Positions 125 through 62,827 of a DNA stretch of 64,000 bases are shown here, piece by piece (the stretch's first letter is position 1; each line of letters starts with the position of its first letter). The stretch spans positions 19,318 through 83,317 of the forward strand of contig CAVRJY010000005.1 of the NCBI GenBank assembly GCA_963721805.1. The letters run 5' to 3'. Position numbers and translations under genes: made by a program. The notes beneath the pieces are model-generated. The model was not told the DNA's origin. It saw nothing but the letters and a program-made list of their open reading frames with translations, and did not search any database. Source of the DNA: Nitrospirota bacterium. GTDB taxonomy: Bacteria > Nitrospirota > Thermodesulfovibrionia > Thermodesulfovibrionales > JdFR-86.

Positions 125-196
<72 letters not shown>

Positions 197-2423: not shown

Positions 2424-3983
2424 CTAACCCTGCGCCGGTGGAGCGCCTGTGCCGCCTCCGGGGCCCTTTGGAGGCTTGTTGCGCCTGCGGCGCGGCCGGC
2501 GGGGCCTGCCTGCCGCCTCCGGGGCCGGGGCCGTCTGGCCCTCTCCTGAAGACCGCGTGGCCGTCTCGGGTGCAGAAGCCTGCCCTGCCTCGGCATGCCG
2601 CCAAGGCGACGGGGCGGACTGGCCCTCTCTTTGGGGCGACTGCCCCTCTCTTTGAATCGGCTGGGCCTCGGGCTGACCGGCTCCTGCCTCGGCATGCCGC
2701 CAAGGGGACGGGGCCGACTGGCCCCCTCTTTCAGGTCTGGGCGGCCGCTGGACCTCTCTTGCAGGCCTCGGCGGGGCCGACTGGGCCTCTCTTGCAGGCC
2801 TTGGCGGGGCCGACTGGCCCTCGGGTCTGGTAGCGCCCTCGGCGCCGGGCTTCCTGCGGCCGCGCCTTCTCTTGCGGCGCTTCTCGCCGGTCTCGCCCTC
2901 CGCAGCTGCGGGCTGGGCCTGAGGTGCAGTGAACTCCGGCTCGTACTCGAAGTCAGCGTGGTATGTAAGCGTCGGCTCTCCGGCCTCTATCGGCGGCGGA
3001 GGGGGCCTGTGCGTCGCGCGCGACGGCCTCTTTGCGGGTGCGGTGACGGCGTCCACCGCTGCCTCCAGCGCCTCGGGCGACGGCTGCTGGGCTGCCGCTG
3101 ACTTCGGCCGCCTCTTGGCGCGCGCGGCGTCCTCGTCGTATTCGTAGTTCAGGCAGCAGAGCAGCCGTCCGCAGCCGCCCGAGAGCTTGGCCGTATTCAG
3201 GACGAGGTCCTGCTGCTTGGCCATCTTTATCGATATCGGCGCGAACGAGCGCAGGAACGTACGGCAGCAGTACTCTATGCCGCAGATGCCGATCCCGCCT
3301 GCCATCTTCGCGGCGTCCCGGACGCCTATCTGCCTAAGCTCGATGCGCGTGCGGAACTTCGATGCGAGGTCTTTTACGAGCTCGCGGAAGTCGATCCTCG
3401 TCTCGGAGATGAAGTAAAAAAGCAGCCTCTTTCTATCGAGCGTGACCTCGGCCAGAAGTAGCTTCATCGGCAGGCCGCGCGCGGCTATGCGTTCGTTGCA
3501 GTATGCGCGGGCCTCGAGGCAGAACGCCTTGTTCTCCTCGTCCTGCCTGATGTCCTCGGCCGTCGCGCGCCTGAGCACGTTTTTGACGCCGCGCTCGTGC
3601 AGGTCCGGCTCGAACTGGACCTTGGCCACCGAGCCTATCGAGATGCCGAGCTCGTTTTCGACGACGACCTGCTCGCCGATCTTGAGGCCCATGCCGCCAT
3701 CGCGGTAAGCGAAGGCCTTGTTCGAGCTTGGAAAGCGCACGCCGACCATCGGCTCGGGCAGGGGGGGCAGCTCGCGCACCTCCACGGCCTCAGCAGCGGG
3801 TGTCTCTATTGGCGCGGCCTCAGGCTCTGAAGCGGCCGCGGGTGTCTCTATGGGCGCGGCCTCAGGCTCGGCAGCGGCAGCGGGGCCATTAGCCTCGGGC
3901 GATTCCGCAGGCTCTATGTTAGGGTCCACGGGATTATTCTCCATGGCCGATGATTCCGAGTGTTCCGATGACGGTTCCAGCAT
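2424..3983 (-). CDS. PSP1 domain protein (YaaT/RicT-like) with repeat-rich N- and C-terminal tails
   Basis: Central block RLLFYFISETRIDFRELVKDLASKFRTRIELRQIGVRD...CGRLLCCLNYEY is typical PSP1. Alternative start at Met14 (3944). Confidence 0.8.
   Translation of the reverse strand: MLEPSSEHSESSAMENNPVDPNIEPAESPEANGPAAAAEPEAAPIETPAAASEPEAAPIETPAAEAVEVRELPPLPEPMVGVRFPSSNKAFAYRDGGMGLKIGEQVVVENELGISIGSVAKVQFEPDLHERGVKNVLRRATAEDIRQDEENKAFCLEARAYCNERIAARGLPMKLLLAEVTLDRKRLLFYFISETRIDFRELVKDLASKFRTRIELRQIGVRDAAKMAGGIGICGIEYCCRTFLRSFAPISIKMAKQQDLVLNTAKLSGGCGRLLCCLNYEYDEDAARAKRRPKSAAAQQPSPEALEAAVDAVTAPAKRPSRATHRPPPPPIEAGEPTLTYHADFEYEPEFTAPQAQPAAAEGETGEKRRKRRRGRRKPGAEGATRPEGQSAPPRPAREAQSAPPRPAREVQRPPRPERGGQSAPSPWRHAEAGAGQPEAQPIQREGQSPQREGQSAPSPWRHAEAGQASAPETATRSSGEGQTAPAPEAAGRPRRPRRRRNKPPKGPGGGTGAPPAQG
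2584..2822. repeat. In-frame tandem repeats inside the PSP1 gene tail (99-bp unit x2, then 30-bp unit x2)
   Basis: CCTGCCTCGGCATGCCGCCAAGG recurs at 2584 and 2683. GCAGGCCT(C/T)GGCGGGGCCGACTGG recurs at 2761 and 2791. They encode repeated APSPWRHAEAG and PPRPARE peptides. Confidence 0.8.
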
Positions 3984-4926
3984 AGTTCCAGACGATACTC
4001 CTGTTCAGATTGTAGACCAGGTCGCGGCGCAACTGCCGCAAGGTCTCGTAAACTCGTATTATACCTTTTACGCCGGCCTCAGGTCTGCCTGCCATCCTGT
4101 GCATGGCCTCCGGGATGTCCCGGTTGACCAGCAGGCCGCCATCCCCGGTGGCCCTCATCACCGCGAGGTCCCGAAGCAATACCGAGAGCTCGTCGATCCA
4201 TTCCCCGGCCTCCGCGGTCGAGGCCCACGAGGGCTTCCCGCCCGCGGCGCGCATCGCCGAGAGCGAGTCCATGAGGCTATCGCGCCGCGCGATCAAGTCC
4301 TCGCGCACCCCGAGCCCCGGCCTGCCCATCGCAAGCGGTACGGCCTCGTCCCCGCCCATCACGGCCGCGGAGTCCGCGTCCGAAAGCGGGCGGAAGTTCA
4401 GGCGCAGGCAGCGCGAGCGTATCGTCGAGGGCAGAACGTCCGGCCTGGCCGATACGAGTATGATCGTCGTGTCCTCAGGCGGCTCTTCCAGCGTCTTTAA
4501 AAACGCGTTGGCCGCGTTTTGGTTCATAGTGTCCGCGTCGTCGATGATCACGACGCGGGTGCGGGCCTCGAGCGCCCGGAACTGTAGGACTTCCTCGACC
4601 GAGCGGTAGGGCTCGCCGGCCTCGTTCTTGGCGGAGTCGTCGCGCCTGATCTGGGCTATCCTTATTTCGCCCCTATCGGGCTCGACTGTCATGAAGTCCG
4701 GGTGAGTCCCGGCCTTGATCATGCGGCAGCTGTCGCACCGGCCGCAGGCGTCGCCGTCTACCGGCTCGTTGCAGTTAAGCGCCATCGCAAACGCGGTCGC
4801 GGTGAGCCGCTTGCCGATGCCCTCCTCGCCCGCGAAGAGATAGGCCGAGGCCACGCGGCCTCGCCGCATCGCGCCACGGAGTATCCTCAAAGCCCGGTCC
4901 TGCCCTATTATATCGCTAAGCGCCAT
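3934..4926 (-). CDS. holB: DNA polymerase III delta-prime subunit
   Basis: AAA+ P-loop-like GEEGIGK, zinc module CGRCDSC, TIRSRC sensor motif. Start set to ATG at 4926 because the longer ORF (to 5070) runs into repeat R1. Confidence 0.85.
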   Translation of the reverse strand: MALSDIIGQDRALRILRGAMRRGRVASAYLFAGEEGIGKRLTATAFAMALNCNEPVDGDACGRCDSCRMIKAGTHPDFMTVEPDRGEIRIAQIRRDDSAKNEAGEPYRSVEEVLQFRALEARTRVVIIDDADTMNQNAANAFLKTLEEPPEDTTIILVSARPDVLPSTIRSRCLRLNFRPLSDADSAAVMGGDEAVPLAMGRPGLGVREDLIARRDSLMDSLSAMRAAGGKPSWASTAEAGEWIDELSVLLRDLAVMRATGDGGLLVNRDIPEAMHRMAGRPEAGVKGIIRVYETLRQLRRDLVYNLNRSIVWNYAGTVIGTLGIIGHGE

Positions 4927-4967: not shown

Positions 4968-5177
4968 GAGCGTCTTGAAAGCGCTCGAAGCGTCTTGAAA
5001 GCGCTCCGAATCGCTTGATGCTGCGTTGGACTTCAAAAACTCGCCCTCTATGTACATCCAAGTACACCATCGGGCGGTTTTCTTGTCCTGCCTTGCCTGA
5101 AGACGATTTAGGCGCGCTTTCGGGGGGAGAGAATAACGGAGCCCCCCGCGCCCCACGAGGTCAACGGCATTGATTGG
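4968..5177 (-). repeat. SRE copy R1 (full length; head variant b, body type 1)
   Basis: Head GGTCAACGGCAT at 5159-5170, core CATCGGGCGG/GTACA motifs. Tail carries a 20-bp tandem duplication (4970-4989 and 4990-5009). Confidence 0.85.
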
Positions 5178-5710: not shown

Positions 5711-5884
5711 CCTTCCTTGCCAAAGTCGCGCTAAATACGCGTGATACGTTGTCACGGCTCGGAAATCCGTCCTCCAGAGTACATCTCAGTACACTTGCGG
5801 ACGTTTTCCTCGCCGTTCCTAGTCTGACGCGATTTATCGCGCTTTAAGTATCCGCTGCATAATCGTGCGAGCGGTCAACGGCAT
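5711..5884 (-). repeat. SRE copy R2 (head type 2, body type 2)
   Basis: Tail CCTTCCTTGCCAAAGTCGCG at 5711, head GCGGTCAACGGCAT ending at 5884. Abuts R3 head to head. Confidence 0.85.
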
Positions 5885-6079
5885 ATCTAATTAAGCAGTT
5901 GACCTTGGGGGTGCGGGGGTCCAGCGGCTGGGCCGCGTATAACCCCCGAAAGCGCAGCCAAATCGTCTTCAGACTAGGCAGCGGCGAGAAGATCGCCCGA
6001 TGGTGTACTTGGACGTACATAGAGGGCGAGTCTTTGAAGCCCAACGACGTATCAAGCGATTTGGGGCGCTTTCCCTTCC
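5885..6079 (+). repeat. SRE copy R3 (head variant a, body type 1)
   Basis: AT box ATCTAATTAA plus GCAGTTGACC at 5895-5904. Tail GATTTGGGGCGCTTTCCCTTCC ends 3 nt before the pfkB-like stop. Confidence 0.85.
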
Positions 6080-6082
6080 CGC

Positions 6083-6992
6083 TTAGAGCTCTTCGAAGTG
6101 ACTAAGCGCCTTAAACCCTCTATAGCGGTTCTCTATCTCGCGATAGTCGAGAGAGCGGAGCCTATCCAGGCTAAACGCCTCGACATTAAACGAGGCCATG
6201 ACAGAGCCCATCACTACCGCGCGCCGCATCGCGGCCTCGCCGAAGTCCATCGAGTTCGCGAGGTATCCGATGAACCCGCCCGCGAAGGTGTCGCCCGCGC
6301 CGGTCGGGTCGTAGACGTCCTCGAGCGGGTATGCCGGGGCCGCGAAGACCCCGTTGGCCGAGAACATCAGCACGCCGTACTCGCCGCGCTTTATCACGAC
6401 CGTCTGTGGCCCGAGCGTCATGATCACACGCGCGGCCTTCACGAGGTTGCGTCTCGCCGGTGAGCTGCCGGGCCTCGGCGTCGTTGATCAGCAGTATGTT
6501 GACGAGCTTGAGTGTCTTAAGCAGCGAGTCGCGCTGGCCCGAGATCCAGAAGTTCATCGTATCCATGGCGATGACCTTGGGGGCCTTGACCTGCCCCACG
6601 ACCTCGCGCTGGAGGTCGGGGTGTATATTGGCGAGGAAGACGACCTCGGCCTCGCGGTGCGCGGCGCTCAGTATGGGCTTGAAGGTCTCAAAGACGTTAA
6701 GCTGCGTATCGTGCGTGCGTGCCTCGTTTAGCTCGTATGTGTATGAGCCCTTCCAGCGGAAGGTCTTCCCGGCGACGCGTTCTAATCCCGAGAGGTCGAC
6801 CCCGCGCGATTTGAGGAACTTGACGTGCTTGTCCGGGAAGTCCTCGCCGACTACGGCGACGAGGCTTACGTCCGTGAAGTAGCTGGCCGAGGTCGAAAAG
6901 TACGTGGCAGAGCCCCCGAGCGCGTCTTCGACCTCGCCAAAGGGCGTCTTTACGGAATCCAGCGCCATCGAGCCCACCACCAGTAGTCCCAT
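6083..6992 (-). pseudogene. PfkB-family sugar/nucleoside kinase, frameshifted
   Basis: ORFs 6186..7010 and 6083..6442 are N- and C-terminal halves (DPTGAGDTFAGG motif in the C-half). One extra base sits near 6445-6452 (ACGCAACCTC vs expected ACGAACCTC). Confidence 0.7.
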
Positions 6993-11622: not shown

Positions 11623-11842
11623 CTCTAATAAAAGCCGTTGACCACGGGGGTGCGGGGGGCGTCCGTTATCCTCTCCCCCCGAAAGCGCGCCCAAATCGGC
11701 TTCAGACAAGGGGACCGGTTGGCCCCTTTTCTTTAGGAAGAGGGGTCCGTGACCTCCGCCCGATGGTGTACTGTGACGTACTTAGAGGGCGAGTCTTTGA
11801 AGACCAACGACGTATCAAGCGATTTGGAGCGCTTTCACTTCC
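11623..11842 (+). repeat. SRE copy R4 (solo; head variant b; body with embedded terminator-like hairpin)
   Basis: CTCTAATAAAA plus GCCGTTGACC at 11634-11643. Hairpin GGGGACCGGTTGGCCCC plus T-run at 11710-11734. Tail ends 35 nt before dnaE. Confidence 0.85.
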
Positions 11843-15392: not shown

Positions 15393-15539
15393 ATGGACAA
15401 CGAAAATAACGAGCCCGCCCAGGTCATCTGCGGCAACTGCCTTGAGGAGGTCCCGCATGAGCTTTTCTGTGAAAACTGCGGGGTTATACTGAAGCCTTAC
15501 AGCAAACAATCATCTTCAAATCCCAGGGTATCTAGCTGA
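15393..15539 (+). CDS. Possible small zinc-ribbon protein (48 aa)
   Basis: CGNC...CENC pair of CxxC motifs, followed by a terminator hairpin. Short and unsupported otherwise. Confidence 0.35.
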   Translation: MDNENNEPAQVICGNCLEEVPHELFCENCGVILKPYSKQSSSNPRVSS

Positions 15540-15565
15540 CCCGTTAACCGCGATTGGAACCTACA

Positions 15566-15595
15566 GGGGGACCCTCAGGCCCCCCTTCCTTTTTA
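15566..15595 (+). terminator. Rho-independent terminator after dnaE / small ORF
   Basis: GGGGGACCCTCAGGCCCCCC followed by TTCCTTTTT. Confidence 0.7.
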
Positions 15596-15618
15596 GGAAT
15601 CTTACACCGCTCCCGCTA

Positions 15619-15813
15619 CCTTCTTGAAAGCGATCCAAAGTTCCGGGATACTGCGTCACGTCTCGGAAATCCGTCCTCGATGTACGTCTCAGTACACCGT
15701 CGGACGTTTTCCTCGCCGTTTCCTTGTCTGCCGAAATTTGGCCCGCTTTATGGGGTTAAACGCGGCCCAGCCGCTGGACCCCATACCCCGTGGTCAACGG
15801 CGTTAAATTAGGG
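15619..15813 (-). repeat. SRE copy R5 (head variant a, body type 2, unique covarying P2)
   Basis: Tail CCTTCTTGAAAGCG at 15619. Head GGTCAACGGCG at 15792-15802 plus AT box. Confidence 0.85.
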
Positions 15814-16310: not shown

Positions 16311-16511
16311 GGGGCAGCGGGAGCAAACCAGCCACTATTATAATGCCGTTGACCGCTCGCACGATTATGCAGGGGAAGGTTAAAGTGCGAGAAATCGTGT
16401 CAGACAAGGAACGGCGAGGAAAACCGTCCGCAGTCGTACTGGGATGTACTTCGAGGACGGATTTCCGAAGCCGTGACGACGTATCACGCGCATTTCGCGC
16501 GCTTTGAGAAC
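16311..16511 (+). repeat. SRE copy R6 (head type 2, body type 2; core from 16336)
   Basis: GGGGCAGCGGG extension, TATAAT at 16339-16344, GCCGTTGACC at 16345-16354. Tail ends at the stop codon of the response regulator. Confidence 0.85.
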
Positions 16512-24325: not shown

Positions 24326-24457
24326 CCTTCTTCAAAGCGCTCCAAATCGCGTGATACGTCGTCAGTTCTCGAAAACTCGCCCTCGGAGTACATCACAGTA
24401 CACCTCCGGGCGGTCTTCTTGCCCTGCCTTGTCTGAAGACGATTTGGCGCGCTTTCC
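24326..24457 (-). repeat. SRE copy R7 (5'-truncated: lacks head and P1 5' strand)
   Basis: Tail CCTTCTTCAAAGCGCTCCAAATCGCG at 24326. Body type 1 with AAGAC/GTTTT (G-U) helix. Ends at GCGCGCTTTCC. Confidence 0.8.
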
Positions 24458-24489
24458 TAAGAGTACCGGCTGGCTGTATAATAATCTCC

Positions 24490-28726: not shown

Positions 28727-28935
28727 ATCTTCTAAAGTCGCGCTAAATACGCGTGATACGTCGTCACCGTTCGAAAAACGATCCTCGAAGTATGTCCATA
28801 TACGACTGCGGGGGTCACAGACCCCTCCTGTAAAGAAAAAGGTGCCCATGGCACCCCTAGTCTGACGCGATTTATCGCGCTTTAAAGTGGTCATTGCATA
28901 ATCGTGCGAGCGGTCAACGGCATTGATTAGAGCAT
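28727..28935 (-). repeat. SRE copy R8 (head type 2; body with embedded hairpins; GTAT/ATAC P4 variant)
   Basis: Tail CTTCTAAAGTCGCGCTAAATACGCG. Hairpins at 28808-28857. Head GGTCAACGGCAT ending 28923 plus TGATTAGAGCAT. Confidence 0.85.
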
Positions 28936-29433: not shown

Positions 29434-29519
29434 GGGGCAGCGCCCCTTGGCTGCCGAAATTTATCGCGCTTTGATGTAGCTTATGCCTAACCGTGCGAGC
29501 GGTCAACGGCATGTTGAGG
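29434..29519 (-). repeat. SRE copy R9 (3'-truncated: head, P1 and first part of P2 only, ending at a GGGGC..GCCCC hairpin)
   Basis: Head GGTCAACGGCAT at 29501-29512. CCGAAATTTATCGCGCTTTG resembles R5. Hairpin at 29434-29446. Confidence 0.7.
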
Positions 29520-29524
29520 CTACC

Positions 29525-30349
29525 TCATTCAGCGGTTGACCAAGCAGCGTAATACGTGTCGTTCAAGTAATTTGCAAGCTTGTTGGTCCCATCAACAAAC
29601 TGCTTCCATACCTGTCGAGTTTCAACAAGCAGAAAATCCAACTCAAAATCAGGAGGTTGTTGTCCAGGGATTGCCAATAATTTGCCTTTTTCTTGCTGTA
29701 TTGGTGCTATCTGAGTCTCCTTAGGCCAATCCACATATGGTGTCTCATTGTGGACAAATTCATGTCGATATGTTTTCATCAGCTTTCTTGTTTCTTCTGA
29801 ATCGAAACATTCATAAAGCAGACTGCACAATTCAGGGTTCTTCTTATTGGCTTTCTTGCAATATATTGAGAAAGACATTTTCTGTTTATTTGTTTCTGTA
29901 TTGATAAAACATAATTTAGCATGCGAGTTCAGTAACCATGCGAGCTTTTCACGATAAGAATGTAGCCTGAATATCGCATTATCCAAGTAATATTTCGAAT
30001 AAAACCAAGCTTCGCCACAGAACGATTTCGAATCCACAAAATCAAGGAATTCAGCACACTGACTTTTTGTCTTTTGCTCATTAAGGTATCTTGACCAAGC
30101 TAAGGCCCAACTGAGACTAACAGCTATAGAGCTTCCACAGTTGTAGACTTGTCTCCACCATTTTGGAATATTATTTACATCACAGTAAAACTCAATAGAA
30201 TCGAGAGCGGGACGCTTCAGAATATTACCTAGAGAAATCCTGCCTTTTGGCAGTGGCAAACTGTCCCAGTCAGTATTTTCAATTTTTAAGGATGTTGCGT
30301 ATTCGGCAACTATACGGAGTCTATCAAGGTAGGCTTCTTTTTCATCCAT
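29525..30349 (-). CDS. AT-rich hypothetical protein with C-terminal Rx4H motif (YRHEFVHN); possible HEPN-type
   Basis: 274-aa ORF with composition far below the backbone. HEPN assignment rests only on the motif. Confidence 0.5.
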   Translation of the reverse strand: MDEKEAYLDRLRIVAEYATSLKIENTDWDSLPLPKGRISLGNILKRPALDSIEFYCDVNNIPKWWRQVYNCGSSIAVSLSWALAWSRYLNEQKTKSQCAEFLDFVDSKSFCGEAWFYSKYYLDNAIFRLHSYREKLAWLLNSHAKLCFINTETNKQKMSFSIYCKKANKKNPELCSLLYECFDSEETRKLMKTYRHEFVHNETPYVDWPKETQIAPIQQEKGKLLAIPGQQPPDFELDFLLVETRQVWKQFVDGTNKLANYLNDTYYAAWSTAE

Positions 30350-30601: not shown

Positions 30602-30666
30602 GAGTTGATTATACCACTTCGATTATTGCCGGCCGATTGTCCCCACTCACCGCTGAGCTGTGCCCC

Positions 30667-31028
30667 CTTCATTAACAATAGTTAATCGAAAGTTAATAGA
30701 AAACGCACAGGGCTCAATTTTTCCTATAACCTTCTGTTTATATATAAACCAAAGTTTGGCATTCTTTAGTGTATAGTGGTGACATGAGCATGATAGAATC
30801 ATATTTGATGGGCTGGACAGGCGAGGATGCAGGGTTCCGCACTTGTTCGGATAAATCGCTAAATACCGCTCTTTTTATCCGAACATCCGAACAAGACGGA
30901 CTCAGTGAAGCTATATATTCCGCAGGGTTAGCCTCGTTTTTGTCTCCAACATCCGAACAAAAAAGGCAAAAACGCGCGCGCACGCGCGCGGAATGCGTAA
31001 CTATACCTAAGCGCGAACGTCCGAACAC
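30667..31028 (+). repeat. Module X1: 360-bp AT-rich module fused to the head of R10
   Basis: Roughly 75-80 percent identical (by eye), with no indels, to 47670-48032. Contains ATTAAC/GTTAAT sites, GTTTATATATAAAC, five ATCCGAACA-like sites and a (CG)n palindrome at 30973-30990. Confidence 0.8.
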
Positions 31029-31205
31029 GCCTTTGACCTCGTGGGGCGCGGGGGGCCTCCGTAATGTTCTCCCCCCGAAAGCGCGCCCAAATCGGCTTCA
31101 GACAAGGCAGGGCGAGAAGACCGCCCGATGGTGTACTGTGACGTACATAGAGGGCGAGTCCTCGCAGCCCAACGCAGTATCAAGCGATTTGGCGCGCTTT
31201 GCACC
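31029..31205 (+). repeat. SRE copy R10 (head variant b, body type 1)
   Basis: GCCTTTGACC at 31029-31038. Tail GATTTGGCGCGCTTTGCACC ends 37 nt before ald. Confidence 0.85.
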
Positions 31206-31242
31206 TATTGCCAATAACGATTATTTTGAGTACCATATACCC

Positions 31243-35398: not shown

Positions 35399-35597
35399 AC
35401 GCTTTTTGGAAAGTCGCACTAAATCGCGTGATACTGCGTCGCGAGTCAAAAATCGCCCTCGGAGTACATCCCAGTACACCATCGGGCGGTCTTCTCGCCG
35501 CTCCTAGTCTGACGCGATTTATCGCGCTTTGGTGTAGCCTCGCATAATCGCGCGAGCGGTCAACGGCATTTATTAGAGCATCCCAGCCGCTGCCCCT
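35399..35597 (-). repeat. SRE copy R11 (mosaic: head type 2, body type 1, tail type 2)
   Basis: Head GGTCAACGGCAT at 35558-35569, TTATTAGAGCAT, and extension CCCAGCCGCTGCCCC at 35582-35596. Confidence 0.85.
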
Positions 35598-36904: not shown

Positions 36905-37096
36905 CTCTAATTAATGCCGTTGACCTTGGGGTGCGGGGTCCAGCGGCTGGATCGCATAACCCCGAAAGCGCGCCCAAATCGTCTTCAGACAAGGAAACGG
37001 CGAGGAAAACGTCCGATGGTGTACTGAGACGTACATCGAGGACGGATTTCCGAGACGTGACGCAGTATCAAGCGATTTGGAGCGCTTTGAAGAAGG
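36905..37096 (+). repeat. SRE copy R12 (mosaic: head variant a, body type 2, tail type 1)
   Basis: CTCTAATTAAT plus GCCGTTGACC at 36916-36925. Tail ...GCGCTTTGAAGAAGG ends 7 nt before the PilZ stop. Confidence 0.85.
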
Positions 37097-40872: not shown

Positions 40873-40902
40873 TAACTCTGAATATTACGAGCGAAGAGGG
40901 AA

Positions 40903-41034
40903 AGGGGGCCGGATGGCCCCTTCTCTTTTATGGGAGGGGTCCGTGACCCCCGCAGGTGTACTGGGATGTACTCCGAGGGAGCGGCTGCGAGCCGTGACGA
41001 CGTATCACGCGATTTCGGCTCGCTTTCTAGAAGG
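40903..41034 (+). repeat. SRE copy R13 (5'-truncated; begins at the terminator-like hairpin)
   Basis: GGGGGCCGGATGGCCCC plus T-run (40904-40930), GGGGTCCGTGACCCC (40936-40950), then body and tail. The tail overlaps the ccsA-like stop codon. Confidence 0.75.
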
Positions 41035-44181: not shown

Positions 44182-44789
44182 CTCGGCACCTTTATTATAT
44201 GCCTCACCGCGCCGCCTGAGTGCGGGAGTTCGACGTCTATGACCTCGCACTCGACCCCGGCGATCTCCTCTTCGTAACGCGGCCCTTTATTCAGCACGAA
44301 AGCGCCGCCGGGGGCGACTATGTCCCCTGCCCCTTCAATAAATTCCCTCACACTAAATAGCGCGCGCGTCACCGCGATGTCCGCGCTGATGCCCGAGGCC
44401 TCCGAGACCTTGGCGTTGATAACCGTGATGCCCGTAAGATTGAGCCGCCGGATGATATGCCGAAGGAACGCGCACTTCTTCTTCGCGGGCTCGATCAGGT
44501 ATACCGTGATATCCGGGCGCATTATCTTGATAGGCACGCCCGGAAACCCCGCGCCGGTGCCGATGTCCGCGAGGCTGTGCACCTCCGGGCCGATAGCGCG
44601 CAGGTATAGGCAGCTGTCCAGCATGTGCTTTACAGCGATCTCATTGGCGTCGCGCAGCGCGGTGAGGTTGTGCGTGCGGCCCCAGCGGCTGAGCTCGTCC
44701 ATGTGAAGCACCATAGCCGAGACCTGCGCGGCGGTGGCCTCGATGCCGAGGCTGGCGAGGCCGTCTGAGATTATCTCATCAGGCCGCAC
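44178..44789 (-). CDS. rsmG: 16S rRNA (guanine527-N7)-methyltransferase
   Basis: 203 aa with SAM motif DIGTGAGFPGVPIKI. Immediately downstream of mnmG. Confidence 0.85.
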   Translation of the reverse strand: MRPDEIISDGLASLGIEATAAQVSAMVLHMDELSRWGRTHNLTALRDANEIAVKHMLDSCLYLRAIGPEVHSLADIGTGAGFPGVPIKIMRPDITVYLIEPAKKKCAFLRHIIRRLNLTGITVINAKVSEASGISADIAVTRALFSVREFIEGAGDIVAPGGAFVLNKGPRYEEEIAGVECEVIDVELPHSGGAVRHIIKVPR

Positions 44790-46642
44790 TCCGGCGGTCC
44801 CTCTCTAACATTATGATCAGGAGTGAGAGAGCGACCGGCGTGACGCCGGGTATGCGGCTTGCCTGCCCGAGGCTCCGGGGCCTGACCTCCTCGAGCTTGT
44901 GGCGCACCTCGGTCGAGAGGCCGGTGATCGCGGCATAGTCGAACCCGGCCGGGATCGCCATCGACTCGGCGCGCCGCAGCTTCTCTGCCGCCTCGCGCTG
45001 GCGCAGGATGTAGCCCGAGTACTTCACCTCGGTCTGGATCAGCATCGCATCGTCGGCACTGAACTCGGCGGCGGGCGGCGATATGCGCGAGATCGAGGGA
45101 TAGTCCATCTCCGGCCGCTTAAGCAGCGTATCGAGCATCACACTCTCGGCAATCGGCGAGGTCCCGCGCTCGCTAAGTATTGGATTTGCGTCACGCGGCT
45201 TGCAGCGCGTCGTGCGGATGCGCTCGATCTCGGAAAGCACCAAGCGGCGCTTTTCGCTAAACGCACGGTGGGCATCATCAGAAATCAGCCCGGCCTCGTG
45301 GCCCTTGTCCGTCAGGCGCATCTGGGCGTTGTCGTGGCGCAGCAGCAGGCGGTATTCCGCGCGCGAGGTGAACATGCGGTACGGCTCGTTCGTGCCCTTT
45401 GTCACGAGATCGTCTATCAGGATGCCGATGTACGCCTCGTCGCGGCCAAGGATCAGCGGAGCGCGGCCCTGAAGCGAGAGCGCGGCGTTTATCCCGGCCA
45501 TTATCCCCTGTGATGCGGCCTCCTCGTACCCGGAGGTCCCGTTTATCTGCCCGGCGAGGTAGAGACCGCGTACCGCCTTGGTCTCTAATGAGTGCGTGAT
45601 CTGCGTGGGGTATACGAAGTCGTACTCTATCGCGTATGCCGGGCGCATGATCTCGGCGGCCTCAAGCCCCGCGATAGAATGAACCAGCGCGACCTGCACG
45701 TCATATGGCAGGCTCGTCGAGATCCCGTTTGCGTAGTATTCCTCGGTCTTCAGCCCTTCGGGCTCCAAAAATACCTGATGCCGCTCGCGCGCGGCAAAGC
45801 GCATCACCTTGTCCTCTATCGAGGGGCAGTATCTGGGGCCTATGCCTGTTATCTGTCCACTATACAATGGTGAGCGGTCCAGAGATCCACGGATGATCTC
45901 GTGCGTGGTCGCGTTCGTATATGTCATGTAGCACGGGAGCTGTTGGTTCGTGATCTCGCGGGTCGAGTGCGAAAACGGGGGCGGCGGGACGTCGCCATAG
46001 TGAGCGGTCGTCTTTGAGAAGTCTATCGAGCGGGCGTCTATACGGGGCGGTGTGCCGGTCTTGAGGCGGCCCAATCTCAGGCCCATCGCAGGCGAGAGAT
46101 TCGGATATGCCTAACGCGGGGAACTCACCGGCGCGTCCTGCGCTGATCTGGCTCAGGCCTATGTGCATCAGTCCGTTCAGAAACGTACCGGTCGTGACGA
46201 TCACCGAGCGCCCAGCGATGAACACGCCGATGTTATCGATAACGCCTGTGACTCGTCCGCCCTCATGCGTTATGTCCACGATATTGGCCTGCCGGATCGT
46301 GAGGCCCGCCTGCGCCTCGATCGACTGGCGCATATTGGTGCGGTACAGGGCGCGGTCGGCCTGCGCGCGGAGCGACCAGACGGCGGGGCCCTTAGAGAGG
46401 TTGAGCATCTTGAAGTGGATGCCCGAGCGGTCGGTGACGCGCGCCATCTCGCCGCCCAGCGCGTCGATCTCGCGGACTAGGTGGCCCTTCGCGAGCCCGC
46501 CGATGGCCGGGTTGCAGGACATCTGGCCTATCGTATCGAGGTTCATCGTGCAGAGGCACGTACGCATACCCATCCTAGCCGCAGCCAGAGCGGCCTCGCA
46601 ACCGGCGTGGCCGGCACCGATAACTATTACGTCGAATGACAT
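44779..46642 (-). pseudogene. mnmG: tRNA uridine 5-carboxymethylaminomethyl modification enzyme MnmG, split by one frame change
   Basis: ORF 45860..46642 (GAGHAGCEAA FAD motif) and ORF 44779..46086 (GRLKTGTPPRID onward) together give full-length MnmG. The shift lies near 46085-46100. Confidence 0.85.
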
Positions 46643-46674: not shown

Positions 46675-46863
46675 CCTTCTTCAAAGTCGCGCGAAATACG
46701 CGTGATACTGCGTCAGGGCTTCAGAAATCCGTCCTCAACGTACGTCACAGTACGCCTCGGACGTTTTCATTGCCCTTCCTTGTCTGACACAATTTCTCGC
46801 GCTTTAGCAATGAGCTGCCTGCGCGTGCGAGCGGTCAACGGCTTTGATAAGAGGGGGCACTCG
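46675..46863 (-). repeat. SRE copy R14 (head type 2, body type 2)
   Basis: Tail CCTTCTTCAAAGTCGCG at 46675 (32 nt from the mnmG start). Head GGTCAACGGC at 46843-46852 plus TTTGATAAGAG. Confidence 0.85.
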
Positions 46864-47479: not shown

Positions 47480-47669
47480 ACACCTTTACCTATCAACCTT
47501 GTCCCAGCTTTCGTTGAAGCCCTAAGGGCTCGCCTTGCCATTATCATAAACTGCCTACATTTATCTGTCAATAATATTTTGCAGCAAGACAACCGTGAGG
47601 CTTAATCATATCGCCATATTCGCATACGTTCGGAACTGGTTTATGGGAAAGAGTTCCCATGGCATCTCT

Positions 47670-48032
47670 CTTCATTAACCATAGTTAATCGAAAGTTAAT
47701 AGAAAACGAATGGCCCCTAATTTTTCCTATTATCTTCGGTTTATATATGAACCAAAGTTTGGCATTCTTTAGTGTATAGTGGAGGCTATGAGTATGATAG
47801 AGTCCTATTTGATGGTCGCGGCAAGTGTTATGGATGTCCGCGCCGCGTGTTCGGATAATGGGCCAAAAACATCGCTTTTTATCCGAACATTCGAACAGGG
47901 GAACTTTTCAAAAGCTAGTAAATCCGGTGGGTTAGCTCCGATTTTGCCCCCAACATCCGAACAAAATCGGCAAAAACGCGCGCGTGCGCGCGCGGTATGC
48001 ATATATATGCCTAAGCGGGGATATCCGAACAT
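47670..48032 (+). repeat. Module X2: second copy of the 360-bp AT-rich module, fused to the head of R15
   Basis: Collinear with X1. GGAGG then ATG at 47794. Inverted repeat GTTCGGATAA (47849-47858) / TTATCCGAAC (47879-47888). (CG)n palindrome at 47977-47994. Confidence 0.8.
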
Positions 48033-48201
48033 GCCGTTGACCGCTCGCACGCGCAGGCGGGAGAAACTTAAAGCGCGAGAAATCAGCGTCAGACTAGGAG
48101 CGGCGAGGGAAACGTCCGAGGGTGTACTGAGACGTACATCGAGGACGGATTTCCGAAGCCGCGACAACGTATCACGCGATTTGGCGCGCTTTGGAGAAAA
48201 C
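48033..48201 (+). repeat. SRE copy R15 (head type 2, body type 2)
   Basis: GCCGTTGACC at 48033-48042. Tail GATTTGGCGCGCTTTGGAGAAAAC. Confidence 0.85.
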
Positions 48202-50695: not shown

Positions 50696-50891
50696 TCTTT
50701 TTCAAAGCGCTCCAAATCGCTTGATACGTCGTCATCAGTCGAAAATAGTCCTCGGAGTATGTCCATATACACCTGCGTCCTATTTTCGCCTTCTTCCTAG
50801 TCTGAAGACGATTTGGCCGCGCTTTCGGGGGTTGGTCGCGGCCCAGCCGCTGGACCCCCGCACCCCCAAGGTCAACGGCTTAGATTAGATA
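50696..50891 (-). repeat. SRE copy R16 (head variant a; private P3 AAAATAG/CTATTTT; GTAT/ATAC P4)
   Basis: Tail GTCTTTTTCAAAGCGCTCC at 50696. Head GGTCAACGGC at 50870-50879 plus TTAGATTAGATA. Confidence 0.85.
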
Positions 50892-52881: not shown

Positions 52882-53058
52882 GCCGTTGACATTGGGGGCG
52901 CGGGGGGCGTCCGTTGCAGTGCCCCCCGAAAGCGCGCCCAAATCGTCTTCAGACAAGGCAGGGCGAGAAGACCGCCCGATGGTGTACTTGGGCGTACATA
53001 GAGGGCGAGTCTTCGATGCCCAACGACGTATCAAGCAATTTGGCGCGCTTTAAAGAAA
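52876..53058 (+). repeat. SRE copy R17 (head variant b, body type 1)
   Basis: GCCGTTGACA at 52882-52891. Tail GCGCGCTTTAAAGAAAGC ends 5 nt before the rodA stop. Confidence 0.85.
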
Positions 53059-54196: not shown

Positions 54197-54405
54197 ACGT
54201 TTAATAAGCCGTTGACCTTGGGGTATGGGGTCCAGCGGCGGAGCCGCGACCAACCCCATAAGGTGCGATAAATCGTCTTCAGGCAAGGAAGGGCGAGGAA
54301 AACGTCCGCAAGTGTACTGTGATGTACTCTGGAGGACGGATTTCCGAAGCCCTGACGCAGTATCAAGTGATTTAGCGCGCCTTCAAAAGGTGTGCAAACA
54401 GCTCT
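54197..54405 (+). repeat. SRE copy R18 (solo; head variant a, body type 2) inserted between mrdA and rodA
   Basis: GCCGTTGACC at 54208-54217 and tail GCGCGCCTTCAAAAGG at 54375-54390. Flanked by AATGCGCACTGTTGGC at 54174-54189 and 54406-54421. Confidence 0.85.
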
Positions 54406-59782: not shown

Positions 59783-60893
59783 ATGACTAAAGAGGAAATA
59801 AAGCTGCAGGCAGGCCTTCTTAGGGAGCGCACCGATTCCCTAAGAGGGTATCTTTGATCTCCCCACCCTCACGCACAAGCTCGAAGAGATAGACAAGGCA
59901 CTCGGGGCCGAGGACACATGGGCCTCGCACGAGCGCGCCACCGAGCTCAACCGCCAGAAGACCCGCATCCAGTCCACGCTCGCGCCGTTTGAGGCCGCCG
60001 ACCGGAAGATGACATACATCGAGAGCTCAATCGGGATGCTCGACGAGGAGGGCGGCGAGATGTTCGCCCCCGAGCTCGCGGCAGCGCTTAACGAGCTCAT
60101 CCCTGAACTTGACGGCCTCGAGCTTCGGTGCCTGATGTCCGGCGAGCGCGACATCTCAAACGCGATAGTCACGATACATCCCGGCGCGGGCGGCACCGAG
60201 AGCCAGGACTGGGCCCAGATGCTGATGCGCATGTACCTCAGGTGGGCCGAGACGCACGGCCTCGCAACCGAAATCCTCGACCTCCAGCCGGGCGACGAGG
60301 CCGGGATCAAGAGCGTCACGTTCGAGGTCACCGGGCCGTACGCATACGGCAACCTCAAGACCGAGGCCGGGGTGCACAGGCTCGTGCGCATCTCGCCGTT
60401 TGACGCGGCGAAGCGCCGCCACACCTCGTTTTCCGCGGTGCTCGTATACCCCGAGGTCGAGGGCGACGTCGAGGTCGAGCTCAGGGACGAGGACATCAAG
60501 ATGGACACGTTCCGCGCCTCGGGCGCAGGCGGGCAGCACGTCAACAAGACCTCCTCCGCGGTGCGGCTGACGCACATCCCCTCGGGCGTGATCGTGAGCT
60601 GCCAGAACGAGCGCTCCCAGCACAGAAACCGCGAAAGCTGCATGAAGATACTGAAGGCCAAGCTCTACGACCTCGGGCTCAAGGAGCGGGAAAACGAGAT
60701 GGAGGGCATCGTCGGGGAGAAGAAGAATATCGCCTGGGGCAGCCAGATACGCTCGTACGTCCTGCAGCCCTATCGCATGGCGAAGGACCATCGCACGGGA
60801 GTCGAGATCGGCAACGTGGACGCGGTACTCGACGGGGCACTCGACCTGTTCATAAAAGCTGCACTGAAAAATAAACTGGGGCGGACGTCTTAA
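59783..60893 (+). CDS. prfB: Peptide chain release factor 2, requires programmed +1 frameshift
   Basis: ORF0 ATG 59783 runs to an in-frame TGA at 59855. The +1 frame continues DLPTLTHKLEE... into ORF 60009..60893 (SPF and GGQ motifs). Confidence 0.9.
59843..59858 (+). promoter_or_regulatory. prfB +1 frameshift site (AGAGGG TAT CTT TGA T)
   Basis: SD-like AGAGGG 3 nt upstream of slippery CTT followed by TGA (59852-59857), as in the classical RF2 autoregulatory site. Confidence 0.85.
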
Positions 60894-61084
60894 TAAAGTC
60901 GCGCCAAATCGCTTGATACTGCGTCACGGCTTCAAAGACACGCCCTCTATGTACATCCCAGTACACCATCGGGCGGTCTTCTCGCCCTTCCTTGTCTGAA
61001 GACGATTTCTCGCGCATTAAGTTTATTCTTGCGTAATCGTGCGAGCGGTCAACGGCATGATTTGAGCGGCCCATCCGCTGCCCC
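60888..61084 (-). repeat. SRE copy R19 (mosaic: head type 2, body type 1)
   Basis: The tail overlaps the prfB stop (TCTTAATAAAGTCGCGCC). Head GGTCAACGGCAT at 61047-61058. Extension GGCCCATCCGCTGCCCC. Confidence 0.85.
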
Positions 61085-61133: not shown

Positions 61134-61912
61134 CTAAATTTTTTGGCCTGTATTAAGCCGGCGCTCTAGAGCCTCAAGGAACTTTATTGAAGATGCGACA
61201 TGTGTATAGATTAGTAGACTCTCTTCGTAATTGAGGAAGCTATTGTCATGGGCAAGGCTTTGGTCATTACGTACTTTATTAAAGGCCTCAAGTGTTGAAA
61301 TGCTTGATTTTAGGATGCGCTCGGTCATTTCTGACTCCAAATGCCCATGCACCTTTAATGTTTTAACGTACTCGCCAACCAAACTATGCAATGGCTTATC
61401 TTTGTCTGTGGATATTCCGTGATTTTGGCAAAGTACTCGAAGATACTTAATAGTAAAGGTGTGCAGTCTGTCCAAACCGACCTCTGGCTCGTGTTTTTCA
61501 ATGGATTCCCGGACAGCCCTTGCCAACACAGCAAACTCTCGTTCAGGACTATTAGGGGTTAATGTCACAACTTCTGGGATTCCTGCTGCCTCAGAAAGCC
61601 TTGCTAAGGCCCTGCGACAATCATCATACGCTTTTAACATTTCCGCGTTAGCGAACTCTACGGAAACGCACTGCATTAGGTCTGTGAGCAGTTTGGCAAC
61701 TACATCGTTTGACTCCCGTGTCCAAAATGCTCTAAGCCGGTTTGCTTTTTGAAACCACTTCCGAAGTTGTACTTCTCGTCTAAGATGCTTAACCCAGTAC
61801 TATCAAAGACAAACTCATCGAATAAGCGAGTTGTAAAATCCAAAACGTAGCCACTTCCCATGCCGAAGAGTGCCTCAAAGTTCCGTTTTTCAATTTTCGT
61901 TAGGTCAGACAT
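61134..61912 (-). pseudogene. Abortive-infection-type protein (Abi_C/HEPN-like C-terminus), frameshifted
   Basis: ORF 61700..61912 (GYVLDFTTRLFDEF...DEKY) and ORF 61134..61676 (VRNDQSLAH motif) join as ...GSGSKANRLRAFW... if homopolymer runs near 61745-61760 are corrected. Confidence 0.6.
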
Positions 61913-61966
61913 AGATTCCTGCGCACAAAAATAATTAATAAGTCTGCATCTACCTTAACCTTTTTA

Positions 61967-62021
61967 TATAGCGCGAGATTTCCGAGGCCGTGACGCAGTA
62001 TCCAGGAAATCTCGCGCTATA
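61967..62021. repeat. SRE fragment R20: foldback built from SRE pieces
   Basis: Perfect 17-bp inverted repeat TATAGCGCGAGATTTCC / GGAAATCTCGCGCTATA. Stem and loop carry GATTTCCGAGGCCGTGACGCAGTATC from the SRE 3' region. Confidence 0.6.
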
Positions 62022-62028
62022 ATGATTT

Positions 62029-62235
62029 TTACTGCCCTACGGCTGTGAGGTCGAGTTTAAAGAGCGTATTGATCGGGAATTTCTTGCTTGCTTCGAGGAT
62101 TTCGATACCCACGAGGTCGTTTTGGGCCGTAGTGTGCAGGGCTACTCCTTCCGCGATCTCGATCGCGCCGTCAGGCTTCTTGGGTGAAAGCTGTATATAT
62201 GCCGCATCGGCCTCTTTATCGTACTTAATTTTCAT
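62029..62235 (-). CDS. DUF2283 domain protein (putative antitoxin-like partner)
   Basis: 68 aa, MKIKYDKEADAAYIQL...LVGIEILEAS. Overlaps the upstream DUF4258 gene. Confidence 0.65.
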   Translation of the reverse strand: MKIKYDKEADAAYIQLSPKKPDGAIEIAEGVALHTTAQNDLVGIEILEASKKFPINTLFKLDLTAVGQ

Positions 62236-62476
62236 TTGCGCCTCCCCAAGCCTTACGCTTAAGCGGATATGCTGTTATTACAAATGTCTCGCCGCCTGAA
62301 AGCTCAAAAACCACCTTCAGCGGGTATCCAGAAAAGCGCTTTCCAAAGCGCTTGATCGCGACTTGTTTGCCCGTTTGAGACTCAAGGAGTTCAGGCGTGC
62401 CTATTGCCTCCGAAACATCATCAGCGGTGATCCCGTATAGTTTCATGTTGCTCCGGGCATGGCGCGACAGTCTCAT
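62225..62476 (-). CDS. DUF4258 domain protein (putative toxin-like partner)
   Basis: 83 aa, RLSRHARSNMKLYGITADDVSEAI...FVITAYP. Confidence 0.6.
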   Translation of the reverse strand: MRLSRHARSNMKLYGITADDVSEAIGTPELLESQTGKQVAIKRFGKRFSGYPLKVVFELSGGETFVITAYPLKRKAWGGANEN

Positions 62477-62513
62477 AAATTATTGTACCAGAATGTGAAA
62501 GTGATAAATAGTA

Positions 62514-62709
62514 TATATAACTAAGACGTTGACCTTGGGGGCGCGGGGGTCCAGCGGCTGGGCCGCGTCTAACCCCCGAAAGCGCGCCCAAATCGGCTTC
62601 AGACAAGGCAGGGCGAGAAGACCGCCCGATGGTGTACTGGGATGTACATAGAGGGCGAGTCTTTGAAGCCCAACGCAGTATCAAGCAATTTGGAGCGCTT
62701 TGAAGAAGG
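62514..62709 (+). repeat. SRE copy R21 (head variant a, body type 1; near-consensus reference copy)
   Basis: GACGTTGACC at 62525-62534. Helices listed in the findings. Tail ...GAGCGCTTTGAAGAAGG ends at 62709. Confidence 0.9.
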
Positions 62710-62827
62710 CGAACGCGTGAAGGGGGCAATCGGCCCCCTTCACAATCTATTCATATGTCTCCTGATAGGATATAATTGAAAAATTATGGGATATAACATT
62801 ATTGACTTAATAGGAGGACTCAGGAGA

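Follow-up and report, generated by a model that had tools for sequence, protein, structure and literature searches.

The sequence at positions 62514-62709 (plus strand; R21) is one copy of a repeat of about 185 nt, here a stretch of about 190 bases, with a core of about 130–132 nt that maintains a long irregular hairpin by compensating mutation. The window (i.e., the whole 64-kb stretch of DNA analysed) contains 18 full cores and two to three fragments of this repeat on both strands, as determined by repeat finding, iterated nhmmer and a covariance model, and further copies were found in bacteria of other phyla, mostly with the tail of the element facing the 3' end of a gene on the opposite strand. 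In all likelihood these copies constitute a real, strand-specific family of structured repeats. The reading that we favour, which combines an RNA role at gene boundaries with mobilisation of the structured repeat in trans, is assigned a probability of roughly 0.5; the specific boundary role of the RNA is a model and is put forward tentatively.

R21 is one copy of a proliferating, non-coding repeat that is constrained by its structure. Read head to tail, the core folds from its base through a P2 helix of about 20 bp, a purine-rich internal loop, helices P2b and P3, a tandem G-A mismatch and the P4 hairpin. Copies are placed at gene 3' ends and have their folded strand antisense to the gene concerned, and in this Nitrospirota genome the core gained one of two 5' heads and then multiplied. 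In the reading favoured here, the folded molecule is taken to be RNA. Transcripts running antisense toward the end of a gene would fold into a rod, and this rod might serve as a boundary structure before the coding region, either as a barrier or as a site of processing or termination, while the DNA copies would be spread by a trans-acting activity encoded elsewhere.

Conserved fold and the strand that folds

Coordinates of the parts of R21 and of the other copies in the window are given in Table 1. The AT-rich segment at the 5' boundary of R21, where the copies cease to resemble one another, has stop triplets in both strands. All 14 exact matches to the head consensus GCCGTTGACC in the window were heads of the element, and 31 matches were noted when up to one mismatch was allowed, compared with 4.9 expected. 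In most copies the 5' head consists of this motif followed by one of two unrelated types of hairpin, such that eight other copies carry an unrelated type-2 head instead of the type-1 hairpin of R21. Within the core, the tandem mismatch is conserved in the form GA[G/U] ... [U/A]GA, and the basal pair of P4 (helix 7 of the family model) varies between G-U, A-U and G-C (67, 28 and 14 occurrences, respectively).

Table 1. Positions of the parts of R21 and of other copies of the repeat in the 64-kb window (CM, covariance model).
Feature	Positions	Strand	Remarks	CM bits
R21, AT-rich 5' boundary	62510-62524	+	here GTATATATAACTAA; consensus of other copies (C)TCTAATnAA, from a 20-copy alignment with flanks	
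R21, head motif GACGTTGACC	62525-62534	+	consensus GCCGTTGACC	
R21, P1 5' strand GGGCGCG	62539-62545	+	GGGTGCG variants give U-G or U-A with partner	
R21, type-1 head hairpin	62545-62577	+	GGGGG...CCCCC around GCGGC-TGG-GCCGC	
R21, P2 closing helix, 5' strand AAAGCGCGCCCAAATCGGCTT	62579-62599	+	helices 1-3 of family model	
R21, P1 3' strand CGCGCCC	62583-62589	+	overlaps P2 5' strand	
R21, 5' loop CAGACAAGG	62600-62608	+	near-invariant across phyla	
R21, P2b 5' strand GGGC	62611-62614	+	pairs with GCCC 62668-62671; helix 5, family-wide	
R21, P3 5' strand AAGACCGCCC	62618-62627	+	family helix 6	
R21, GA of tandem G-A/A-G mismatch	62628-62629	+	opposite GA 62651-62652; read from alignments	
R21, P4 hairpin	62632-62649	+	GTGTAC-TGGGAT-GTACAT; GUAC/GUAC stem invariant	
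R21, P3 3' strand GGGCGAGTCTT	62653-62663	+		
R21, P2b 3' strand GCCC	62668-62671	+		
R21, 3' loop AACGCAGTATCA	62672-62683	+	family consensus RACGNNGUAUCA	
R21, P2 3' strand AGCAATTTGGAGCGCTTT	62684-62701	+		
R21, 3' extension GAAGAAGG	62702-62709	+	semi-conserved; confined to copies of this genome	
Core copy	4992-5124	-	type-1 head up to 5173	101.6
Core copy	5717-5849	-	type-2 head up to 5886; head-to-head with copy 5945-6078	96.8
Core copy	5945-6078	+	type-1 head from 5890	96.5
Core copy with inserted hairpin	11678-11841	+	hairpin GGGGnCC..GGCCCC	54.7
Core copy	15621-15753	-	type-1 head up to 15806	94.5
Core copy	16378-16511	+	type-2 head from 16341	88.4
Headless core copy	24328-24459	-		106
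Core copy with inserted hairpin	28729-28887	-	type-2 head up to 28926	41.5
Type-2 head and truncated 5' core part	29443-29513	-	abuts stop codon 29431-29433	
Core copy	31074-31206	+	type-1 head from 31025	106.9
Core copy	35405-35534	-	type-2 head up to 35572	100
Core copy	36961-37094	+	type-1 head from 36911	110.2
Partial rearranged copy	40909-41032	+	3' half intact	20.5
Core copy	46677-46809	-	type-2 head up to 46847	88.7
Core copy	48066-48198	+	type-2 head from 48030	110.2
Core copy	50698-50829	-	type-1 head up to 50884	96.6
Core copy	52925-53057	+	type-1 head from 52877; tail 7 nt from opposite-strand rodA stop	106.3
Core copy	54256-54389	+	type-1 head from 54204; tail 15 nt from opposite-strand PBP2 stop	100.5
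Core copy	60890-61022	-	type-2 head up to 61060; tail overlaps release-factor gene stop	107.8
Mini-derivative	61964-62026	+	nothing but 17-bp closing helix around GAGGCCGTGACGCAGTATCC	16.1

The importance of pairing in the core was evident from covariation. When 45 core sequences were folded with RNAalifold, one long irregular hairpin was obtained in which 22 of 27 pairs keep pairing through double changes. Among 116 distinct family members, in alignments that were fitted to the model and in which paralogous copies inflate cell counts, 92.7% of cells were paired as opposed to 69.7% after shuffling, double changes were noted in 24 of the 27 pairs and the covariation score was 0.561 versus 0.165 for shuffled alignments, with none of 500 shuffles reaching the former value and slid controls at or below 0.13. 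For the 18 cores of the window, aligned in the same manner, the corresponding values were 90.0% versus 83.3% of cells paired, changes on both sides in 13 of 27 pairs versus a shuffled mean of 6.8, and a score of 0.234 versus 0.136 (0 of 500 shuffles reaching it; slid controls at or below 0.077). Between phyla the stems are wholly different with pairing kept, while loops UCAGACAAGG and RACGNNGUAUCA, the tandem GA and GUAC-N6-GUAC are fixed. These findings indicate that the core is a structure under compensating mutation, beyond both kinds of control and more strongly so across the family than in the window alone.

The earlier note on this DNA had proposed that copies differ in sequence and still pair, and this was borne out by compensatory changes above both shuffled and slid controls. 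The helices that it named P2, P3 and P4 match helices with family-wide support (in the analysis of the window alone, where P3 is helix 5, both sides change in four of four pairs), and all 17 of the segments that it quoted read as it gave them, at the positions that it gave. Points that the note did not raise are the spread of the core family across phyla, its position against stop codons and the lineage-specific nature of the head with P1, which competes with P2. It is scarcely credible that the repeat is instead a decaying palindromic DNA sequence with no selected structure, in which relatedness of copies gives rise to apparent covariation. Such an account can point to alignments fitted to the model and to cell counts that overstate independent events because copies from the same genome are paralogues, but it must also accommodate double changes in 24 of 27 pairs and 92.7% pairing among stems that differ between phyla, the collapse of slid controls, loops conserved among contigs of Saccharibacteria, Firmicutes-like bacteria, Bacteroidaceae and Nitrospirota, and an excess of G-U over A-C of 50 to 8 at one orthologous locus.

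Selection acts on the head-to-tail strand, as shown by this excess of G-U over A-C and by a bias in folding energy. For all modelled pairs, 170 G-U and 62 A-C were counted. At two positions anchored by invariant neighbours, where G-U alternates with A-U/G-C or C-G, the counts were 102 and 0, whereas in the remaining, less well aligned inner stems they were 68 and 62. At the orthologous nrdJ–hldE locus, for which 13 distinct contigs were compared, the 50 G-U and 8 A-C included 29 versus 3 in the closing helix and 5 versus 5 in the inner stem. Folding energy was lower on the forward strand in 87 of 107 members, with a mean gap of 6.4 kcal/mol. It is from the two anchored positions, together with the closing helix and the purine-rich loops, that the strand was assigned. 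Strand-biased deamination on the sense strand of the gene (or on the leading strand) would be expected to give a skew in the opposite direction.

With respect to the nature of the folded molecule, RNA is favoured by the free exchange of G-U with A-U and G-C (up to three wobbles per 20-bp helix), by the tandem G-A mismatches and by the purine-rich conserved loops. Against RNA, recognition of a site by protein would better suit both the GTAC pair, which is invariant and self-complementary, and the exactness with which the element joins stop codons, an upstream promoter is not recurrent, a forward transcript at the nrdJ locus would start in hldE, and G-U is about as frequent as A-C in the inner stem. 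The same counts of G-U and A-C also fit a strand-specific hairpin of single-stranded DNA, such as that of integron attC or REP sites.

Comparison by eye with the K-turn, the sarcin-ricin loop, loop B of the hairpin ribozyme and SRP domain IV gave registers that did not fit. The element was also considered as a coding sequence; an ATG in CGATGGTG is limited to some copies, and substitutions are compensatory rather than codon-like.

The 5' head and promoter searches

The head of the element is a lineage-specific add-on that competes with P2. CGCGCCC, the 3' strand of P1, lies inside the 5' strand of P2, and P1 and outer P2 therefore cannot form together; in its fold of lowest energy, R21 adopts P1. 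Either of the two types of head module can pair with the P2 5' strand. The head is missing outside this genome and from the copy at 24328-24459. It may act as a switch or may simply be an adjacent module. Variants of type-1 P1 were C-G, U-G and a single U-A, and the last of these, the T-A change cited in the earlier note for the third copy (R3), is present as described and is accompanied by an adjacent G/G mismatch. The pairing suggested there for type-2 P1 fared less well, as CTCGCAC opposite GCGCGAG/T includes an A/C mismatch in six of eight copies, which on the other strand is a G-U pair.

In 95 contexts, sigma-70-like promoters upstream of the folded strand were found in 17, with no positional peak, and among window copies there were just two distant matches, at -95 and -117. 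The head sequences TTGACC and TCTAAT were tried as -35 and -10 hexamers, respectively, and neither has a partner hexamer at the right distance; one type-2 copy alone gives a 9/12 match to the promoter consensus. No clean intrinsic terminator was found after the tail, and a generic terminator scan was blank at R21. R21 lies between a minus-strand DUF4258 gene on one side and a plus-strand gene on the other and is an exception to the gene-end placement described below. It is followed by a GC-rich hairpin at 62717-62743.

These searches bear on the idea, close to that of the earlier note, of a discrete small RNA gene or riboswitch-like cis-regulator that would be transcribed head to tail from a promoter within the head itself (-10, TCTAAT; -35, TTGACC). 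We consider this very improbable. The conserved fold and invariant loops agree with it, as do the switch-like alternative pairing of P1 and P2, the position of R21 between divergent genes with the GC-rich hairpin after it, and the copy of locus L002, which is located in a 5' leader, with the Shine-Dalgarno sequence hidden in its closing helix. However, there are twenty copies in 64 kb beside unrelated genes, mostly directed toward gene 3' ends, no -10 is suitably spaced from TTGACC and no -35 is conserved upstream of TCTAAT. The head, moreover, is absent from other phyla as well as from the headless copy, and close relatives are without the element. A riboswitch or leader would also be expected to precede functionally related genes in the sense orientation, whereas here the neighbours are unrelated and 49 of 61 contexts have the tail directed at the 3' end of a gene on the opposite strand.

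Placement at gene ends

Outside the window, an opposite-strand stop codon was found within 80 nt after GUAUCA in those 49 of 61 distinct contexts (opposite-strand ORFs of at least 120 aa), and in 43 of the 49 the stop was 14–21 nt after GUAUCA, which is the outer end of the closing helix. The folded strand is thus mostly antisense to the flanking gene. Flanking genes are unrelated housekeeping genes (groEL, nrdJ, pnp, ychF, rpoD and galE), and the groEL beside an element retains its natural C-terminus. In copies from other genomes, the closing helix finishes with base pairs to which the complement of the stop codon contributes; the ends of the helix read YTRA...TYAR, and therefore a stop triplet points inward at both ends. 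In one gut genome, six copies end in ...GTTCAG, the opposite-strand CTGA of each being in frame with a different gene.

Similar placement was noted within the window, where in 11 of 18 cores the distance from GTATCA to a stop of this kind (again for ORFs no shorter than 120 aa) is 20–53 nt; the number rises once small genes, e.g., a PilZ gene, are counted. The tail of the copy at 16378-16511 is 5 nt from the stop of an opposite-strand response-regulator gene. Copies occur at a density of about one per 3 kb, and the repeats make up about 5% of the window, which is ordinary chromosome with genes for dnaX, dnaE, purL, rodA, PBP2, release factor (prfB), response regulators and cytochrome c7 as well as an MCP and a few defence-like genes. 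On the head side, no comparable gene association was seen. Same-strand ORFs that lie upstream and end at the head in the nrdJ group were dismissed as spurious antisense ORFs halted by the built-in stop triplet.

At the nrdJ–hldE locus the two flanking genes are both on the other strand and the element fills the gap between them, and therefore a forward transcript would need to start inside hldE. Thirteen diverged contigs have the element at this intergenic position, with stems that covary, and such long-term retention together with covariation suggests that the element is of use to the host. A possible hldE promoter after the element was read by eye at this locus.

Placement directly after stop codons raised the alternative that the element is a mobile or duplicated Rho-independent terminator of the neighbouring gene, acting on the tail-to-head strand with the inner stem followed by UUUU(U)CCUUGUCU, in which case the bias in orientation would reflect selection for termination. 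About half of non-window members indeed resemble such terminators in having a GC-rich stem with an A-run and a U-run right after the stop. On the reverse strand, the GC-rich inner stem is followed by at least four U in 31 of 71 non-window members and by at least two in 58 of 71, the element begins at the stop codon of the gene, the possible hldE promoter follows at the nrdJ locus, and mismatches of the inner stem are neutral with respect to strand. In contrast, window copies are without usable U-tracts, with U-runs of 0–3 on the reverse and 0–1 on the forward strand (R21 reads CUGCCUUGUCUGA), and it is on the other strand that selection maintains the closing helix and the foot of the GUAC hairpin, wobbles being opposite to the gene strand. 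The hairpin of the element, at 70–130 nt, also differs from a terminator in its conserved non-U loops and its enclosing helix; neither RACGNNGUAUCA, GA/GA nor an enclosing helix of 20 bp is needed for one, and one window copy sits beyond a separate canonical terminator (15540-15620). On balance, a terminator module of this kind appears decidedly improbable.

Distribution, mobility and relation to known repeats

With a strict pattern for the 3' half, matches were found in seven representative genomes, which comprised Clostridiales, Bacteroidaceae, Christensenellaceae and four Saccharibacteria; with one genome per species, each gave a single match, and similarity runs past the pattern. A looser pattern gave at least 80 metagenome loci from human gut, sediment and other sources, and carriers also include gut Firmicutes-like bacteria and gammaproteobacteria-like contigs. 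Covariance model R1, which was built from 15 window copies and 30 diverse copies, gave at least 130 matches in the window and 88 loci, several loci having two to four copies. In one gut assembly, element copies were present on at least five contigs. Contigs often terminate at an element, as expected for a repeat.

The element did not correspond to any known family. Rfam 15 was searched with the element, the window and a total of 21 loci, and no family was matched. At the gathering threshold, the window and 16 loci gave just tRNA-Gly and one Gut-1 RNA, and with the element itself at permissive settings (E-value up to 10 or 1) there was only noise. No description of the element was found in the literature, either by topic or by sequence string. 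Plasmids were without a match to a gut copy or to R21. The single match in a viral collection indicates that the element is not linked to phage.

The DnaE and an Fe-S protein of the window put the source organism with Nitrospirota/Thermodesulfovibrionales-like MAGs, named members of which share 57–61% DnaE identity; other relatives are at 75–81%. The element was not found in 44.8 kb from relatives with 62–81% DnaE identity and, since close relatives are without it, expanded recently in this lineage. A comparison with relatives for empty sites was abandoned as only the dnaE coding sequence aligns and flanks are not conserved.

Searches for a mobilising activity were negative within their scope. 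No transposase, integrase or mobile-element gene was detected by Pfam among 30 window proteins, no non-orthologous protein recurs near the 88 loci (recurring neighbours are all orthologous), and neither tnpA, tnpB nor iscB was found near any copy, with no Rfam match to HEARO or IS605-orfB. Similarly, no consistent direct repeat indicative of target-site duplication was found at the boundaries of 12 window copies or in gut copies. Since neither a transposase nor a target duplication nor an empty site was found, mobility is inferred from three observations only, namely the number of copies, their near-identity and the lack of the element in relatives.

A different account of both structure and spread is that the element is a recognition structure of single-stranded DNA, the head-to-tail strand of which would fold and be recognised by a tyrosine recombinase or HUH transposase acting in trans; this enzyme would copy or move the element with a preference for sites with a stop triplet (YTRA), by analogy with REP/REPIN-RAYT, the ends of IS200/IS605 and attC bottom strands. 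This account is possible, if somewhat unlikely. The fold is strand specific with conserved unpaired bases, the strand that folds is the complement of the upstream gene and runs over the stop codon of that gene, a geometry also seen in attC, no promoter was found and the GTAC palindromes are invariant. Moreover, near-identical copies in one genome end exactly at CTGA in frame with six genes, hairpin repeats are nested in copies and expansion is seen in one lineage only. Set against these points are the absence of a recombinase or transposase both from the window and from the surroundings of all 88 loci, the lack of a target duplication, and an orientation that tracks the neighbouring gene on both strands of the 64-kb window and not the direction of replication. 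In addition, the neighbours are housekeeping genes in both orientations rather than a cassette array, three G-T mismatches per 20-bp stem are costly in DNA, and the orthologous nrdJ copy was kept across species with covariation.

Similarities with known systems place the element among REP/ERIC/MITE-like repeats; its conservation across phyla is unusual, and it has no entry in Rfam. To our knowledge, the small structured intergenic repeats REP, ERIC and Correia are each confined to one lineage. In common with REP/BIME and REPIN-RAYT, the element is a multicopy extragenic palindrome that lies after genes or between convergent genes, is mosaic with small motifs and keeps its hairpins, and as with REP/REPIN it shows lineage-specific amplification with no transposase per copy. 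REPs, however, are 20–40 nt in length (REPINs about 70–110), carry a GTAG or CGTC tag and are genus specific, whereas the 132-nt core of the element keeps four helices and three loops from phylum to phylum, and the element adjoins stop codons precisely and in a specific orientation. CGTC often precedes CAGAC in the element, but CTTC, TGTC or GCTT does so in other copies. No RAYT was found by Pfam among the 30 window proteins, and none was recurrent near the 88 loci.

ERIC/IRU, Correia/NEMIS, RUP, BOX and bcr1 share with the element the form of transcribed intergenic imperfect palindromes of about 100–170 nt with terminal inverted repeats; the strands of the closing helix correspond to inverted termini of about 17–22 nt, as in MITEs. 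Orientation-dependent RNA effects have reportedly been described for ERIC in Yersinia and Correia in Neisseria. These ERIC- or MITE-like repeats differ in being restricted to one genus or family and in usually having a TA or other target duplication, whereas the element shows no such duplication, has loops that are conserved across phyla between covarying stems and favours one strand. Neither the window nor the loci yielded a candidate parent in the form of an insertion sequence that encodes a transposase and shares the termini of the element.

The resemblance to attC extends to a folded strand that is complementary to the upstream gene, a site that starts at or overlaps the stop of that gene, conservation of structure over sequence, unpaired bases and a length of 60–140 nt, and some members end in ..AAC/GTT.. 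like attC. The consensus RYYYAAC...GTTRRRY was absent; gut members come part of the way with CTGAAC...GTTCAG or CTAAAC...GTTTAG, and in window copies GTTGACC is gene-distal and AAC is missing on the gene side. Unlike attC, the element has internal loops that are conserved in sequence, is accompanied by no integrase and forms no unidirectional cassette array, its copies lying on both strands among core housekeeping genes (dnaE, purL, rodA, PBP2 and prfB).

A bolder proposal is that the family represents either a novel class of self-propagating element, inserted at stop codons with single-nucleotide precision and mobilised through its folded strand with no transposase, or a conserved antisense RNA of gene ends. 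This we regard as improbable. A self-propagating element of this kind would supply its own TGA/TAA as the last pairs of the closing helix, in phyla that include genome-reduced Saccharibacteria, and candidate routes are ribozyme-like, RNA-templated or dependent on a host enzyme; for the antisense RNA, a universal host partner would be the candidate.

The consequences differ with the nature of the folded strand. If RNA, as in the reading that we favour, the element would be a common, uncatalogued antisense element of gene ends in human-gut and environmental bacteria; if DNA, it would point to a mobilisation system new to knowledge and aimed at stop codons. In either case annotation is affected, and the repeats break metagenome assemblies. 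The element is directly testable, since its carriers include abundant gut bacteria. Small GC-rich hairpin repeats were also observed nested within copies, in this genome as well as in gut genomes, and tandem copies were noted too.

Additional repeats accompanying the element

A second small hairpin repeat was noted in the window, consisting of GGGGnCC-loop-GGnCCCC followed by a run of T residues, and this arrangement looks like a terminator. Two copies of the main element (a core repeat of about 132 nt that forms a long hairpin) were interrupted by the small repeat, which also occurred free-standing 3' of genes. Two further copies of the main element, with heads (5' modules) of different types, were each located directly downstream of one copy of a non-coding repeat of about 400 nt. 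The latter contained four occurrences of the motif ATCCGAACA and a CGCGCGCG-CA-CGCGCGCG hairpin, which has the form of a strong terminator if the minus strand is read. Direct repeats of 49 nt were noted within or adjoining the ORF at 2424-3983 (-).

Repeats and selected genes of the window, with one repeat of gut genomes
Feature	Position	Strand	Remarks
GGGGnCC-loop-GGnCCCC repeat	11708-11759, about 28780-28830, 40902-40953		
Hairpins resembling this repeat	15575-15610, 62717-62743		
Non-coding repeat, ~400 nt	30660-31040, 47665-48045		82% identity
Direct repeats, 49 nt (n=2)	2584-2632, 2683-2731		94% identical, 99 nt apart
Release-factor gene	60009-60893	+	PCRF and RF-1 domains
HEPN (Cthe_2314-like) gene	29525-30349	-	
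Abi_C gene	61134-61676	-	
DUF4258 gene	62225-62476	-	
Small zinc-ribbon ORF	15393-15542	+	about 49 aa, two CxxC
tRNA-Gly(CCC) gene	125-196	-	Rfam or ARAGORN
CCCCA..-loop-..TGGGGaCCCCGA repeat	L054 about 6760-6830; L012, L019, L043, L079		upstream of core in the last four

Genes of the window

Three genes that resemble defence or toxin genes (HEPN, Abi_C and DUF4258) were dispersed amid housekeeping genes, and two of them flanked R21, the copy under study. The tail (3' end) of one copy of the main element overlapped the stop of the release-factor gene, the match of which began at position 57 of the PCRF profile; the N-terminus is probably encoded in another frame, as with the programmed frameshift of prfB. 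Another tail followed, in order, dnaE, the zinc-ribbon ORF and a canonical terminator. The GidA/MnmG-like gene at 44779-46642 (-) appeared to be divided between two ORFs that overlap and use different frames. The one at 45860-46642 covered no more than the N-terminal half of the domain. A sequencing error, a frameshift or a pseudogene could account for this. The tRNA-Gly(CCC) gene was the sole Rfam or ARAGORN match in the window.

Surroundings of the element at other loci

The main element was present in tandem or in clusters at five metagenome or genome loci outside the window, L014 (about 40-70), L030 (about 2390-2420), L066, L038 and L087, the last with four copies in 11 kb, and the spacer between neighbouring copies was CTTG in two unrelated loci. 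In a Bacteroidaceae MAG (L002, 2597-2726 (-)), the element, in sense orientation, immediately preceded a gene that had a dihydrofolate-reductase-like ORF after it, and the 3' strand of the element's closing helix (P2) contained the Shine-Dalgarno sequence GGAGA. In a Christensenellaceae MAG (L005), a copy lay about 150 nt downstream of a Gut-1 RNA (Rfam RF01706, 62 bits) at 52-129.

A further small repeat in gut genomes, CCCCA..-loop-..TGGGGaCCCCGA, the stems of which covary, was noted upstream of main-element cores, and in one case it interrupted a closing helix in its 3' strand. In the closest relative (L091, about 4215-4250), GCCGTTGACT matched the head motif at 9 of 10 positions at a site that lacked the main element and preceded the dnaE start by 8 nt; this match may be due to chance.
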